Shown here: positions 2,560 to 7,370 of the stretch, piece after piece
How the letters are laid out: each line of letters opens with the position of its first letter
Numbering within the stretch: the first letter of the stretch is position 1
Virus record (IMG/VR): IMGVR_UViG_2703718811_000008
Span: 1-7,370 of that record
Source: a virus
Taxonomy: Duplodnaviria; Heunggongvirae; Uroviricota; Caudoviricetes
DNA length: 7,370 nucleotides
Reading direction: 5' to 3' (one strand)
Program-made: the position numbers and the translations under genes
The notes under the pieces: model-generated
The model's input: the letters and a program-made list of their open reading frames with translations, nothing else
Told to the model about the DNA's origin: nothing
The model's database searches: none

Positions 2560-3378
2560 TCAATGATTTTTTAAGAATGGATAGGTAAAAAATAACAGGT
2601 GGCACAAATTCAACCCAAAATGAAAAAATGTAGCAACCCATAAGCGTCCACTAAACATCCATGCCATGCCATAAATCACTCCAGATAACATTGCAAACAG
2701 TACAAGTAACAAACCACCAGAATAATGATAAAGACCAAACAAAACTGAAGCGATAAACAATGCTACAAATGGATGTACAATCATAGAAAGACGCTGCTGA
2801 AGATATCCTCTGAAAAATGCTTCTTCAGCAAGAGAGACAAAAAACAAGTTGCTCAATATAAACTTTGGCAACCACTCCGGGAAATGAACCTCTGGTTTTA
2901 TTCCACCCAGTAAAACAGCTAAAACCAAAATAAATGGAACAGATAAAAAGAGCAAGGCCCACATTCCATAAGATACTTCGTACCTGAAATCGCTCTTAAA
3001 CAACCTGGGAAAAGATAACACCAATAAAAATGGCACCATGGCCTTATCAAAATTAAAATACATGGTGTATGGCGTACTAAACGGCCCGGTTATTACAGAA
3101 TTCAAAACCACAGGGTTATGAAAACCAGGCCAAAAGTGATATAGCAGCACAACAGATAATACAACTAAACAACTCTCCGTAACAATTCTACACCATGATT
3201 TCTGTGCCCACTTAACTTTTAACCAATACAATAGCCCAACGATTGTAAAGAGACCAAATGCCGGCCAATCTATAACTCCATTAGCGACACCCAAAACAAC
3301 AGATGCTATTAACAATAACAAAGAAAACAGTTTATATGCATTCAAACTTAGCAAGGATAAAGCCAGAACGCCCCACAT
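2560..3378 (-). CDS. CPBP-family (CAAX protease / Abi-type) intramembrane metalloprotease, 272 aa
   Basis: ATG at 3378..3376 with GGAGG about 6 nt upstream (RC of 3379-3395 = TTTTTGACGGAGGTTTT). Polytopic hydrophobic protein with the three CPBP motifs in order: EExxxR (AEEAFFRGY), FxxxH (FGLYHY), HxxxN (HFGLN). Gene is strongly AT-rich. Confidence 0.85.
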   Translation of the reverse strand: MWGVLALSLLSLNAYKLFSLLLLIASVVLGVANGVIDWPAFGLFTIVGLLYWLKVKWAQKSWCRIVTESCLVVLSVVLLYHFWPGFHNPVVLNSVITGPFSTPYTMYFNFDKAMVPFLLVLSFPRLFKSDFRYEVSYGMWALLFLSVPFILVLAVLLGGIKPEVHFPEWLPKFILSNLFFVSLAEEAFFRGYLQQRLSMIVHPFVALFIASVLFGLYHYSGGLLLVLFAMLSGVIYGMAWMFSGRLWVATFFHFGLNLCHLLFFTYPFLKNH

Positions 3379-3495: not shown

Positions 3496-3519
3496 CTAGA
3501 TATTGCATGCAATATCTAG
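3496..3519. promoter_or_regulatory. Perfect 24-bp palindrome overlapping the Q stop codon; candidate protein-binding site
   Basis: CTAGATATTGCA|TGCAATATCTAG is exactly self-complementary; no U-tract on either strand, so not a classical terminator; overlaps the last Q codons and its TAG (3516-3518). Confidence 0.4.
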
Positions 3520-3884
3520 CATGCATCCATTTCCAGTGAAACATTAAGTGCCATTAACATCCCGTCAACAATACCCTCAGCCTTTTGAAGTTTTTTACCG
3601 ATATAACCATCCGAACAACCATGTTTTCTTGCCAAACTCATAAAAGTCATTCCAAATACGTAGTAATCAAGCAGCAATTCATGCAGTTCACTATTGTTCC
3701 GGTTCAGGCGCGCCATACACCCGCATATAATCATCGCGTCATCGTCACAACATTGCGGGCGGGATTTTATCTTTGCTGGAATAAGCCCCTTAAATCCGTT
3801 GGCAATAGACGACCATGTTACATCCTCATGGTTATTAGCTACCCATGCTCCCCAGTGTTCGAGAACCATCTGAATATCACGCAT
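3516..3884 (-). CDS. Late-gene antitermination protein Q (QuuD-like lambdoid Q family)
   Basis: ATG at 3884..3882 with GGAG 7 nt upstream; the track ORF starts 5 codons earlier at a TTG. Translation [34 protein letters not shown]...[16 protein letters not shown]... closely matches my recollection of E. coli DLP12 QuuD (YbcQ), including the Cys-rich zinc motif. Confidence 0.85.
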
Positions 3885-3901
3885 CAACTTTCTCCACAAA
3901 A

Positions 3902-4897
3902 TCAGGCCAGCACGCCAATTGCCAGCGCACGATCGATAAAACGAAATATCAGCTCCAGTTGGGAGCCATACTTTTCTTCAAATGCCACGGTATCCGCATG
4001 CAGCTCGTCGTGATGCTTTCTGCACAAAGGCAACACAAAAAGGTCATGCGCTTTTGTACCCATTCCACCCTGACCGTGGCCTATCAGGTGGTGGGGATCA
4101 TCAGCAGGCTTTCCACAACATGCACACGGCTGTGTCTTAACCCAGCGCGTGTACTTTTCATTAACCCAGCGGTGACGTTTTGGGCGTAACATAAAAGACT
4201 CCGGCGACTCCGGATCCACTTTCAGCGCCAGCACCTTTTTCGCTTTATCCTGGATGATGCTGGTGGCAGGAACCGAAGGAATAAGGTCACTTTCCCGGGT
4301 GACAGACGACACAACAGGCTTCGGTAATCTCAGTGCCTTACGGGCTGCACTTTCCGGTAAGGCATCCGCCAGGTCATTACGAACCAGCCACCAGCACAGT
4401 TCAGGCATTGTCACAACGTGACTATCATCAAAACCGAGATCCCGACGCACGACAGACAACACCCAGCGGGCACAGTTATCCGTTGCCATTGATTCCAGCC
4501 GTTCCGTGAACTGATCGCGCAGCTGGTTATCGCAGTGCCAGCACAGACGGATTGCGCCCGGCGCGTGTCGCATTGTGGTCATGTTCTCGCTGTGCCAGTC
4601 GGAATGAGGCCACTGGCAGCCTTTTTCACGAAGTAACCAGCTTTCAAGACATTCCACGCCACCAGCACGACGGATCACTGCCTCATTGCGGAACACGGCC
4701 CGAACGGCAGGATCATCCGCCAGCGGTTGTGATGCCGCCGGAACAGCACCACTGGCGAAAGATGAATAACGTTCCGGCTCAGGCTCCAGCAGGACACGCC
4801 CCTGCATAAACAGGGGCATCAGCTCTGAACCTGGCCTGAACAATACGATCCCCATACGCGGGGCAATTTCAGGGGTCAGTAGTGCTCTCACGGTCAC
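3902..4897 (-). CDS. DUF968-like prophage protein with C-terminal Cys/His (HNH-like zinc-binding) motif; YdfU-like position directly upstream of Q
   Basis: 331-aa ORF, stop TGA at 3902-3904. C-terminus [43 protein letters not shown] has C-x2-C...HH...PLC..HH...H spacing. Start uncertain: GTG at 4897, GTG at 4891 (better SD GAGG) or internal ATG. Confidence 0.75.
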
Positions 4898-4898
4898 C

Positions 4899-5708
4899 TC
4901 AATGAACGGTATCGAGCAGCTTTAACAGCTCAGGGAATCGGGATTCGAAGAAATGCGGCTGCGTCTCGCGCGGATTTGCGGGACTGGTGATGTTCTTGCC
5001 GAACATGCAGCCTTTCGCTGTCAGCGACCAGAATTTTTTGATGTTGTTAATCGCGGTACGGCTGTATCGTTCGCGCTGCTCGACGATCCCCAGCTTCACC
5101 ATCTGGTGATATGCCTGATTAGCCGTCAGGCGGATACCATACTGCTTCAGCAGTGCACTCAGTGACAGCGTAGGGCGACTTGAGCCATCGGGTGCATCGG
5201 CAGGAGCATCAATTGCATAGCGCGGAGCCAGATTCGGTAAGCCAACAGCCTCCTGGAGTTTCTGACAAGCCCCAAGCACAGATGAGTTAGACAGGTTTAA
5301 TTCCCGACGCATAAAGTCCAGCAGGATCACGCCAGCCTGCATCTTGTCAGCAGCCTGCCCGGATAATTTTTCCGGTGCGCTGGTTATCATATCGAAAGTA
5401 CGGATCACCTTCAGATGGAATGACGGGCTGATCCACATTGCATAGGCATACACCAGTTCTTTGCAGACATACGTCCCCTGGTTATTTCCGCCATTAATGA
5501 CGCTAACTGGTTGATTTTGTTCCAGAGGCGGAATTCCACCCTCGGTGAAAAGTTGTTCAATCAATTCACAGGTTTGCTTATTGGAGAGCCAGTATTTCGG
5601 GCGGTTTTTTTGTTCTCCCCCGGCTGCCCTGTGCAGATCGTTCAGGCTGTAACGCCCATAAGCATCACGACGAACTTCAATACCATCAATGACCATCAGA
5701 TTATTCAT
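4899..5708 (-). CDS. KilA-N domain protein (Roi / antirepressor-like), 269 aa
   Basis: ATG at 5708..5706 with AGGAG 9-10 nt upstream. N-terminus (VIDGIEVRRDAYGRYSLNDLHRA...GTYVCKELVYAYAMWISPSFHLKVI) matches the KilA-N/APSES pattern (GTWVHP..A..FA.WISPEF as recalled). Stop TGA at 4899-4901. Confidence 0.8.
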   Translation of the reverse strand: MNNLMVIDGIEVRRDAYGRYSLNDLHRAAGGEQKNRPKYWLSNKQTCELIEQLFTEGGIPPLEQNQPVSVINGGNNQGTYVCKELVYAYAMWISPSFHLKVIRTFDMITSAPEKLSGQAADKMQAGVILLDFMRRELNLSNSSVLGACQKLQEAVGLPNLAPRYAIDAPADAPDGSSRPTLSLSALLKQYGIRLTANQAYHQMVKLGIVEQRERYSRTAINNIKKFWSLTAKGCMFGKNITSPANPRETQPHFFESRFPELLKLLDTVH

Positions 5709-5727
5709 ACTTCGTTTCTCCTCTTAA

Positions 5728-5955
5728 TCAGGCGGCTGCACCCGCCGTTTTCTCGTACTTACTGATAGTGATCTCGACCTTCCCTCCCGGGATAACCGGT
5801 CCCCACTCCACCAGCATTCTTTTCACCTGACTGTCGTCTTCCCACACACCCGCGTGGGTCAGGGCGTCAAACAGCGCCTTGTTATAGTTGTCCAGATCGC
5901 GGATCCGGTTATCCCAGCATGGTTGCCACCTCCTGATTGGTTGGCGGAAAGCCAC
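5728..5955 (-). pseudogene. rusA: RusA Holliday-junction resolvase, C-terminal part only (5'-truncated)
   Basis: Frame translates to ...DNRIRDLDNYNKALFDALTHAGVWEDDSQVKRMLVEWGPVIPGGKVEITISKYE, matching the RusA C-terminal catalytic half (RRRDLDN...DALTKAGFWLDDAQV...GGRLELTITE as recalled). The frame is closed upstream, and the roughly 60 N-terminal residues expected for RusA are absent. The track's start is a GTG, and RusA-like sequence begins near 5915. Confidence 0.6.
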
Positions 5956-6019
5956 GCTCTTTCTGGTAAGAAATCAGCATATCCAGCACCTGCTGCTGGC
6001 ATTGAGTTAACGTCGTCAT
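5909..6019 (-). other. 36-codon ORF resembling the N-terminal start of a LexA-type DNA-binding domain; probable remnant at a mosaic junction
   Basis: ATG at 6019..6017 overlaps the TAA of the upstream gene (TAATG). Translation MTTLTQCQQQVLDMLISYQKERGFPPTNQEVATMLG aligns without gaps to LexA residues about 4-36 ([33 protein letters not shown], recalled), then hits TAA exactly where RusA similarity begins in the +1 frame. Confidence 0.3.
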
Positions 6020-6507
6020 TACGCCCCCACGTAATTCCCTGACAGATACCACTCATCACCCGATACAGCGCGCTTGCTGCTTTTCCGTAAACACTGCTCA
6101 CGACGCGCCAGAAAATTGTTTCGTTCTGGCTGGGAGTGGCTTTCACGGAATGCCGCCATCCACACGGTTGCAGCACGACGGTATAAGCCCCTGGACTCCA
6201 GTTCTTCAGCCTGGCGGGTCAGGCACAAAATCACCCGTGGATCGTTAGTGCCGACATAGAAATTGCGCACAGGTCTGGTTTCACGAACTGGTTGTGGTTC
6301 CGGCTCCTGCGCTCTCTCAGTCAGGCGCGGGAAATGTCTGCGTGTATCTCCTTCACAACGGTGAGCCACACGCCCACTCTGACGTAACTTGCTTGCTGAC
6401 TGCAGAACGCGCTGCCGTGAGTAACCTGCAAAAGCCTCCGCAATGTCTCCGGAAGTACACCCCGGATGGGCTTCAATGAATTTCTGAACGTCATTCAAAA
6501 GACTCAT
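6019..6507 (-). CDS. PerC-like transcriptional regulator with N-terminal winged-helix-like region (162 aa)
   Basis: ATG at 6507..6505 overlaps the TGA of the upstream replication gene (ATGA) and has GGGGGGG upstream. C-terminal LESRGLYRRAATVWMAAFRESHSQPERNNFLARREQCL matches the recalled PerC/Pch signature (LEARGLWRRAAARW...RRRKHCL). Confidence 0.65.
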   Translation of the reverse strand: MSLLNDVQKFIEAHPGCTSGDIAEAFAGYSRQRVLQSASKLRQSGRVAHRCEGDTRRHFPRLTERAQEPEPQPVRETRPVRNFYVGTNDPRVILCLTRQAEELESRGLYRRAATVWMAAFRESHSQPERNNFLARREQCLRKSSKRAVSGDEWYLSGNYVGA

Positions 6508-7370
6508 AATCCCCCCCTGAATCCTGCCGGGATCTGGCTGTAGTCCACGTTGTCGTAACTGGCTTTGAAGTACGGGTCTTCGCGTTTTTCGGTGTACGTG
6601 CTGACGGACGGCGATAAGCGCAGGGAAAGCTCATCCCATTTTTCCCGCAGCTTCGACGGGCTGAGCACGTTACGGCACCAGAACGGATCGCGACTGACGC
6701 GGCTGTACATCTCGCAGATTTGTTTATGAGTACGACCATCCTGCACACACATCAGGCGAATTTCGTTTGCCCAGGCTGTCCAGTTCGGTTCTTTGGGACG
6801 AACCACCTCGCCGTCACATTCGGCGGCATGCTCGTACAGGGCGATGATTTTTTTCCAGAGCCACTGTGCGCAGGTCAAATCATCCTGCGTCCCCCACTGG
6901 CGCTTTTTAGGACTGAATACAACCGCATCAGGATGGCGAGTTAAAAAATCCTGTTCAGCCGTCTGCGTGTCCGGTTGCGAAGCGTCCGGACGAGAAGTTT
7001 TTTTATCTGACGGATCATGTTTTGATTTTACTGACGGATCCCCACCAGATTCTGACGGGTGAAAACCCGCTTTTTTGCCAGATTTCGACGCATCAAATTT
7101 TGACGGGCCAGATTTTGATGCGTCAGATTTTGACGGGTCAGAATCTGACAGTTGAGAAAATGCCGCTGCCTGAAGCTTCGCAACGTTAAGCTGATAAACA
7201 TTCGACGCATTGCGGTTACCCTGGCGACGCGCCTTACGCGTTAACCAGCCTTCTGCTTCCAGCCGTGCGATAGCCGTTCTGACGGTACTCATCCCCGCGC
7301 CAATCTGGCGGGCAATGGTTTCAATTGATGGCCAGCACACACCTTTGAACCGCCCCGGAAATCCTGGAGA
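6504..7370 (-). CDS. Phage replication initiation protein (O-like; winged-helix N-terminal domain, repeat-encoded linker), 5' end beyond window
   Basis: Frame is open to the right edge (the track's start at 7340 is a GTG, not a true start). The N-terminal CWPSIETIARQIGAGMSTVRTAIARLEAEGWLTRKARRQGNRNASNVYQL fits the wHTH pattern of replication initiators. An internal Ser/Asp/Lys-rich low-complexity linker is encoded by the tandem DNA repeats. Position is upstream of a nin-like region and Q. Confidence 0.7.
   Translation of the reverse strand, partial: SPGFPGRFKGVCWPSIETIARQIGAGMSTVRTAIARLEAEGWLTRKARRQGNRNASNVYQLNVAKLQAAAFSQLSDSDPSKSDASKSGPSKFDASKSGKKAGFHPSESGGDPSVKSKHDPSDKKTSRPDASQPDTQTAEQDFLTRHPDAVVFSPKKRQWGTQDDLTCAQWLWKKIIALYEHAAECDGEVVRPKEPNWTAWANEIRLMCVQDGRTHKQICEMYSRVSRDPFWCRNVLSPSKLREKWDELSLRLSPSVSTYTEKREDPYFKASYDNVDYSQIPAGFRGGL
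7081..7155. repeat. Five direct 15-bp tandem repeats (iteron-like), with three looser copies at 7001-7060
   Basis: GATTTCGACGCATCA / AATTTTGACGGGCCA / GATTTTGATGCGTCA / GATTTTGACGGGTCA / GAATCTGACAGTTGA at exact 15-bp spacing. The core TGACGGGTCA is a TGAC/GTCA inverted repeat. Extra TGACGG copies at 7008, 7032 and 7053 flank an AT-rich patch (6996-7030). Confidence 0.8.

Follow-up and report, generated by a model that had tools for sequence, protein, structure and literature searches.

What could be the function of an array of short DNA repeats that lies inside the coding sequence of a phage replication gene, and does selection act there on the DNA or on the encoded peptide? The question arises in a window of 7370 bp (the whole stretch of DNA analysed here), the minus-strand content of which is the early-right and nin region of a lambdoid prophage. 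We propose that an SfIV-type lambdoid prophage very probably has its replication origin at positions 6969-7157, with an array of initiator-binding sites placed inside the linker of an O-like gene. Searches for a published description of an SfIV-type origin (covering the origins of SfIV, SfII and SfV, lambdoid iterons, and the motif as text) found none, nor did they turn up a published assay of binding or of origin activity; in GenBank, the entries for SfIV, Kati and PhiR29_1 have no rep_origin at this place.

Across the window the top Escherichia coli matches are 98.9% identical. In transcription order the O-like replication initiator gene comes first (6504-7345) and a PerC/YfdN-type gene second (6019-6507). 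Further along the minus strand lie a LexA-like fragment comprising the LexA DNA-binding domain in a 47-aa ORF (5909-6052), a C-terminal fragment of RusA of 75 aa (5728-5955), a KilA-N gene (4899-5708), a DUF968/HNH gene (3902-4897), the antiterminator Q (3516-3899) and a gene for a CPBP-family protease (2560-3378). Two adjacent tRNA genes, tRNA-Gly(tcc) and tRNA-Arg(tct), are also found downstream of Q on the same strand (808-960), and the pair adjoins the CPBP-family protease gene. The LexA-like and RusA fragments (5728-6052, minus strand) indicate deletions in the nin region of the prophage.

The initiator gene, which here lacks its first 33 codons, is the counterpart of gp41 of phage SfIV (313 aa). 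It is 98.6-98.9% identical to genes that bear the annotation replication protein O or primosomal protein in SfIV and SfII (Shigella phages) and in several phages of E. coli; the gene of PhiR29_1 is one of these matches. Over its full length the SfIV protein fits the profile phrog_391, 'replication initiation O-like', with an E-value of 1.6e-135 (residues 1-313 aligned to positions 1-298 of the 298 in the profile). At the N-terminal end of the gene is the remnant of a winged-helix DNA-binding domain (codons 34-95, 7161-7345, minus strand), cut by an insertion sequence. In the full SfIV protein Pfam HTH_36 covers residues 23-70 (E 4e-11), there is no match to Phage_rep_O (PF04492) in the N-domain even at E-values up to 10, and solved structures give weak matches only, to MarR winged helices. 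The C-terminal domain (6504-6950, minus strand) is homologous to that of lambda O by both tblastn and BLASTP: it is 35% identical to the O proteins of lambda and phage 21 (tblastn, E 4e-18), and residues 183-277 align with residues 187-270 of the lambda-type O of phage 21 (BLASTP, E 1e-25). This lambda-O-like domain spans residues ~166-277, and the BLASTP alignment extends back through the linker, which aligns with the stretch of O that carries the annotated lambda iterons (nt 349-434 of the phage 21 gene). Judged by its N-domain, the SfIV-type initiator is thus placed outside the Phage_rep_O family, with a C-domain homologous to that of lambda O. No P-like or DnaC-like loader gene was found after the initiator gene; the overlapping downstream gene is the one of PerC/YfdN type (6019-6507; 2516-3010 in L001), which was considered as an analogue of P and rejected, having no similarity to lambda-type P.

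Between the two domains lies the linker (codons 96-165, 6951-7160, minus strand), and it is here that the repeats are found. The original prediction had placed five 15-bp direct repeats and three looser copies inside the low-complexity linker-coding part of the gene, and both statements hold. Translation of codons ~96-165 gives the low-complexity sequence SDSDPSKSDASKSGPSKFDASKSGKKAGFHPSESGGDPSVKSKHDPSDKK, with the repeats occupying codons ~96-150. Tandem Repeats Finder reports a 15-bp period at 7079-7142 (4.3 copies, 77% matches) and, over the same stretch, a 30-bp period (2.2 copies, 86% matches); a repeat search finds five copies at exact 15-bp steps, starting at 7079, 7094, 7109, 7124 and 7139, a sixth starting at 7046, and two TGACGGATC copies starting at 7008 and 7031. 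The unit is best described as a degenerate, palindrome-like 14-bp motif, TCTGAC-NN-GTCAGA, with eight copies within 7006-7157. Searched as TCTGACGGGTCAGA with no more than three mismatches, it matches nine times in the 7370-bp window, and eight of these matches (six sites, two of them scored on both strands) fall within 7006-7157; chance would give 0.39 matches per window according to 200 shuffles, none of which reached nine. Over the whole 39.8-kb genome of SfIV, five of six motif matches likewise lie within 107 bp of gene 41, which occupies 30443-31384 of NC_022749. The inverted TGACGG(G)TCA-type cores of the earlier description survive as dyad symmetry and not as an exact pattern, the cores being imperfect and fitting TGAYSSRTCA exactly in only three of the eight copies.

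Both repeat searches and the motif search agree on the tandem array of five 15-bp units at 7084-7157, with 14-bp sites at 7144-7157, 7129-7142, 7114-7127, 7099-7112 and 7084-7097. Beyond it stand an isolated copy, TCTGACGGGTGAAA (7051-7064), and two distal iteron-like copies, ACTGACGGATCCCC (7030-7043) and TCTGACGGATCATG (7006-7019), so that the spacings between the eight copies are 15, 15, 15, 15, 33, 21 and 24 bp; all eight share one reading frame in the window. The isolated iteron is the solitary copy nearest to the AT-rich tract and the best conserved one across homologues: the block TTTT(C/G)ACCCGTCAGAATCTGG is near-invariant in an alignment of eight sequences (A1). Each distal copy contains a GATC (at 7037-7040 and 7013-7016, respectively), and GATCC is invariant across the eight divergent homologues of the same alignment; a link between these two sites and Dam methylation is possible. 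An adenine methyltransferase gene is often located near the O-like gene in relatives (733R5, YeP1, PhiR29_1). Two ORFs that run over the repeats, one antisense (7022-7189, plus strand) and one in another frame of the minus strand (7028-7210), were taken as by-products of the repeats.

The repeats adjoin an AT-rich stretch at 6992-7032 (29% GC), a candidate DNA-unwinding element. No 40-mer of the gene is less stable, and it ranks in the top 0.1% among positions 3500-7345. It sits on the promoter-distal side of the repeats, towards low coordinates, where it overlaps the last two loose copies. The earlier picture of an AT-rich patch flanked by two groups of repeats has therefore to be abandoned: the gap between the groups (7062-7078) has an ordinary GC content, ~40-55% in overlapping 40-bp windows. 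A terminator-like hairpin with a T-run at 7056-7069 (plus strand, antisense to the replication gene), located between the tandem array and the isolated iteron, was discarded as no conserved feature, the stem not being kept in the Klebsiella phage Kp4873-4. Just beyond the AT-rich stretch is an inverted repeat, GTCCGG-N11-CCGGAC (6969-6991), which is kept in Kp4873-4 and 733R5 and absent in YeP1 and phiP27, whose C-terminal modules differ. It possibly marks the outer edge of the origin.

How might such an origin work? The N-terminal winged-helix domain would bind the eight 14-bp iterons, probably as dimers, with TCTGACCCGTCAGA as its predicted target: five in tandem, 15 bp apart, and three nearer the AT-rich end. 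The resulting O-some-like nucleoprotein complex would open the adjoining AT-rich stretch at 6992-7032, and the lambda-O-like C-terminal domain would then recruit the helicase. Several observations count against this reading. At a centre-to-centre distance of 15 bp, tighter than the 20-24 bp of lambda and P22, adjacent dimers would sit on different sides of the helix; the AT-rich stretch, at ~40 bp, is short and less extreme than that of lambda; and no P-like or DnaC-like loader follows to account for the step of helicase recruitment.

The distribution of the motif among relatives bears on the first step of this scheme. Homologues with an N-domain identity of at least ~60% keep the iteron motif even where the C-domain has been swapped. 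The motif is found at the same position in the Yersinia phage YeP1 (N-domain 68% identical) and in L17 of phiP27 (44%), the C-terminal modules of which differ: the C-terminus of YeP1 is Phg_2220_C, and that of phiP27 is unrelated and followed by DnaC-like and DnaB genes. In both phages the module breakpoint falls directly after the last repeat. More distant relatives with HTH_36, at ~32-38% identity, have other repeats in the same place: L157 carries TCTGCAC.TGCAAAA with a period of 15 bp, L161 a 19-mer at spacings of 35 and 33 bp, and L163 a 22-mer at spacings of 23 and 22 bp. The L157 array (1475-1548; ~31% identity to the phiP27 N-domain query) is TCTGCA-NN-TGCAGA-like, and its motif differs from that of SfIV mainly at the two inner positions of each arm. 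This array hints that the 15-bp period may be a trait of the family. Such co-inheritance of repeat and N-domain, as seen in the compared sequences, is what recognition of the repeats by the N-domain would lead one to expect.

Another possibility is that the repeats form a constrained DNA or RNA element other than an origin, such as operators by which the initiator or some other regulator governs early-right transcription, a site for packaging or for partition (centromere-like), or a structure in the mRNA. Dyad-symmetric repeat arrays are also typical of operators and of parS/parC, and the comparative data speak to a constraint on the DNA and to its co-inheritance with the N-domain, not to what follows binding. 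We nevertheless consider this explanation unlikely, since the layout is that of lambda ori in a homologous gene, with iterons followed by an AT-rich tract between the sequences coding for the N- and C-domains, and since the SfIV genome has no other motif cluster that could serve as the origin of this initiator. No promoter-like site was found inside the repeat region. For a structure in RNA the geometry is unsuitable, because the 6-bp arms are only 2 nt apart and no hairpin loop could form.

If the repeats are an origin, the DNA should matter more than the peptide. The opposite explanation would be a slippage-prone, low-complexity coding repeat (an SKSDP-type linker) with no role at the level of DNA, the similarity of its units arising from recent 15-bp duplications. 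The common reading frame of all eight copies in the window agrees with it, as does the variable number of units among relatives, which slippage would give: 733R5 has two tandem units more than Kp4873-4, and extra units also occur in L098, L113 and L139. The comparison of synonymous substitutions proposed with the original prediction, however, favours constraint on the DNA. Among codons that specify the same amino acid in SfIV and Kp4873-4, synonymous differences affect 5 of 52 (10%) in the linker, as opposed to 44 of 77 (57%) in the N-domain and 47 of 92 (51%) in the C-domain. The contrast between linker and domains (5/52 vs 91/169; Fisher p = 3e-9, an inexact value because the counts use related sequences and duplicated units, so that independence is overstated) amounts to synonymous sites conserved five times more strongly than in the folded domains, whereas the amino-acid identity of the linker (74%) is no higher than theirs. 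In five more divergent homologues the synonymous difference has the same direction.

Serine codons tell the same story. The first serine codon of the unit is TCT in 50 of 53 units and the second is TCA in 52 of 53, counts to which the reservation about related sequences and repeated units, and hence about overstated independence in p-values, applies as well. In other parts of these genes every one of the six serine codons occurs. The choice stays fixed by position in homologues down to ~60% N-domain identity. Evidence independent of codon counts comes from a copy that has changed its frame. In the phiP27 clade, represented by phiP27 and about 45 distinct metagenomic sequences, TTT(C/G)ACCC(G/T)TCAGAATCTGG is kept in frame 2, where it reads VFTRQNL or VLTLQNL; the same DNA in SfIV, in Klebsiella and Yersinia phages and in L153 and L155 stands in frame 0 and reads FHPSESG or FDPSDSG. 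The shift results from the loss of one base ahead of the best-conserved copy and the gain of one base behind it. Homologues that keep the peptide and lose the DNA repeats were looked for, and the opposite was found: the phiP27 clade keeps the DNA motif and loses the peptide.

Comparison of the homologues thus shows a constraint that acts on the DNA and not on the peptide. The frame-shift, serine-codon and synonymous data largely refute the coding repeat as an explanation, the dyad symmetry of each unit is unneeded by a peptide repeat, and we regard this alternative as very improbable. The suggestion that the low complexity of the linker reflects constraint for DNA binding is borne out by the same three comparisons. 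With the repeats read as an origin, the linker peptide is tolerant and of low complexity because the same DNA is both origin and coding sequence; its coding role also restricts changes in the tandem units to steps of 15 bp (5 codons). That the origin lies elsewhere, the repeats being a relic without function in every member of the family, is hardly credible in view of the purifying selection on synonymous sites visible across E. coli, Klebsiella, Yersinia and metagenomic homologues, and of the wide occurrence of the origin segment (6985-7165), which is found, 95-99% identical, in 1977 of the 5426 complete E. coli genomes (36%), in up to four copies per genome.

The copy in the window, on the other hand, sits in a damaged gene. 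The claim that the repeats lie in a replication gene stands as regards the presence of that gene and needs amendment as regards its completeness: from 7346 onwards the window contains the left terminal 25 nt (7346-7370, plus strand) of an IS3-family element, IS1203/IS629, which interrupts the initiator gene and the rest of which lies outside the window. These 25 nt are identical (25/25) to the end that, in E. coli O157:H7 PA20, stands ~30 nt upstream of a transposase gene annotated as IS3-like IS1203, and all phage and E. coli matches to the initiator gene end at 7345. The insertion falls after codon 33, within the HTH_36 domain, and so inactivates the initiator; the origin could therefore not fire unless a related phage gave the initiator in trans. 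Between 6985 and 7165 a single difference separates this copy from the best E. coli copies, C7108 in place of T, which turns the GTCA arm of the third tandem iteron into GCCA and replaces Asp by Gly in the protein. Such a change would fit a dead prophage in which constraint has relaxed. Neither the junction of gene and insertion sequence nor the iteron variant private to the window has an exact match in the representative-genome collection. To judge from these sequence features, the prophage is decaying and its putative origin orphaned, and this copy should be marked as replication-defective.

The consequences of such an orphaned array are a matter for speculation. It might act as a decoy that titrates the initiator of an SfIV-type phage, whether newly arriving or resident in the same cell, and lowers the replication of that phage, or the origin might be fired in trans and amplify the neighbouring chromosome in situ; separately, the lambda-O-like C-domain might work without a phage-encoded P or DnaC loader. 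We hold these ideas to be improbable. If true, the last of them would mean an undescribed route of host helicase recruitment.

What does the assignment offer? It supplies a probable origin, an iteron consensus (TCTGAC-NN-GTCAGA with a 15-bp period) and a candidate unwinding element for one of the most widespread replication modules of E. coli and Shigella prophages. Its value is one of annotation, as roughly one in three complete E. coli genomes carries the module, the gene of which RefSeq names only 'helix-turn-helix domain-containing protein'. The locus also provides an example of dual coding, in which the DNA of the putative origin constrains synonymous sites, the encoded linker drifts and one copy outlives a frameshift. 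Analyses of synonymous rates and selection would be misleading in the linker stretch of the gene.

Among known systems, the iteron plasmid origins share with the present locus the proposed scheme of winged helix, iterons and AT-rich element. Plasmid iterons lie outside the rep gene, measure 17-22 bp, stand about two helical turns apart and take part in copy-number control by handcuffing. The origins of pPS10, F, R6K and P1 (RepA-type) combine a winged-helix initiator with direct repeats beside an AT-rich unwinding element (PMC4980987). Closer to hand are L17 of phiP27 and the 'replication protein O' of YeP1, which share the N-domain and the iteron motif at the same position; phiP27 differs from the SfIV type in having one iteron in another reading frame.

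Salmonella phage P22 resembles the present case in that its initiator gene contains its own iterons, and its record annotates a rep_origin inside gene 18. Its gp18, however, belongs to Phage_rep_O (PF04492), which also matches the O protein of phage 21, and the P22 origin has four 20-bp repeats spaced 20, 24 and 23 bp in a gene followed by that of a DnaB-type helicase. As a close relative of the SfIV-type protein gp18 was rejected, the match not being significant (E 0.54). According to the literature every distantly related initiator has an iteron type of its own: lambda, P22 and L all carry iterons inside the coding region of O or gene 18, and these differ from one phage to the next (PMC8022706; PMC7466680).

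The architecture of lambda ori inside gene O, with which the locus had been compared at the outset, is supported here by the homologous C-domain, the aligned iteron stretch and the promoter-distal AT-rich tract. Lambda ori, and those of 21, 434 and the Stx phages 933W and P27, share with the proposed origin a mid-gene position in the initiator sequence, between the N- and C-domains, as well as several direct repeats with internal dyad symmetry and a promoter-distal AT-rich tract. In phage 21 the iterons are followed by an A-rich tract on the promoter-distal side, the same order of elements as here. Given this lambda-type order and the partial homology to O, we describe the layout as that of lambda. 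The number of iterons varies among lambda-type origins, from four in lambda to six in Stx phages (PMC7466680). Other features set the two apart: the N-domain of lambda O is Phage_rep_O and that of the SfIV type HTH_36; the 18-19-bp iterons of lambda are spaced 20, 24 and 23 bp, in contrast to the unrelated 14-15-bp units, in 15-bp tandem, found here; and lambda has a longer AT-rich tract and a P gene downstream, whereas here the tract is shorter and the P gene is absent. The main structural difference is the 15-bp spacing with its 30-bp super-period, as against the 20-24 bp of lambda. This is otherwise an ordinary case of a textbook layout, one that leaves the understanding of such origins unchanged and would not surprise a specialist. 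What is new is the assignment of this particular origin; that an initiator gene carries its own iterons was already the rule in lambda, P22 and L.
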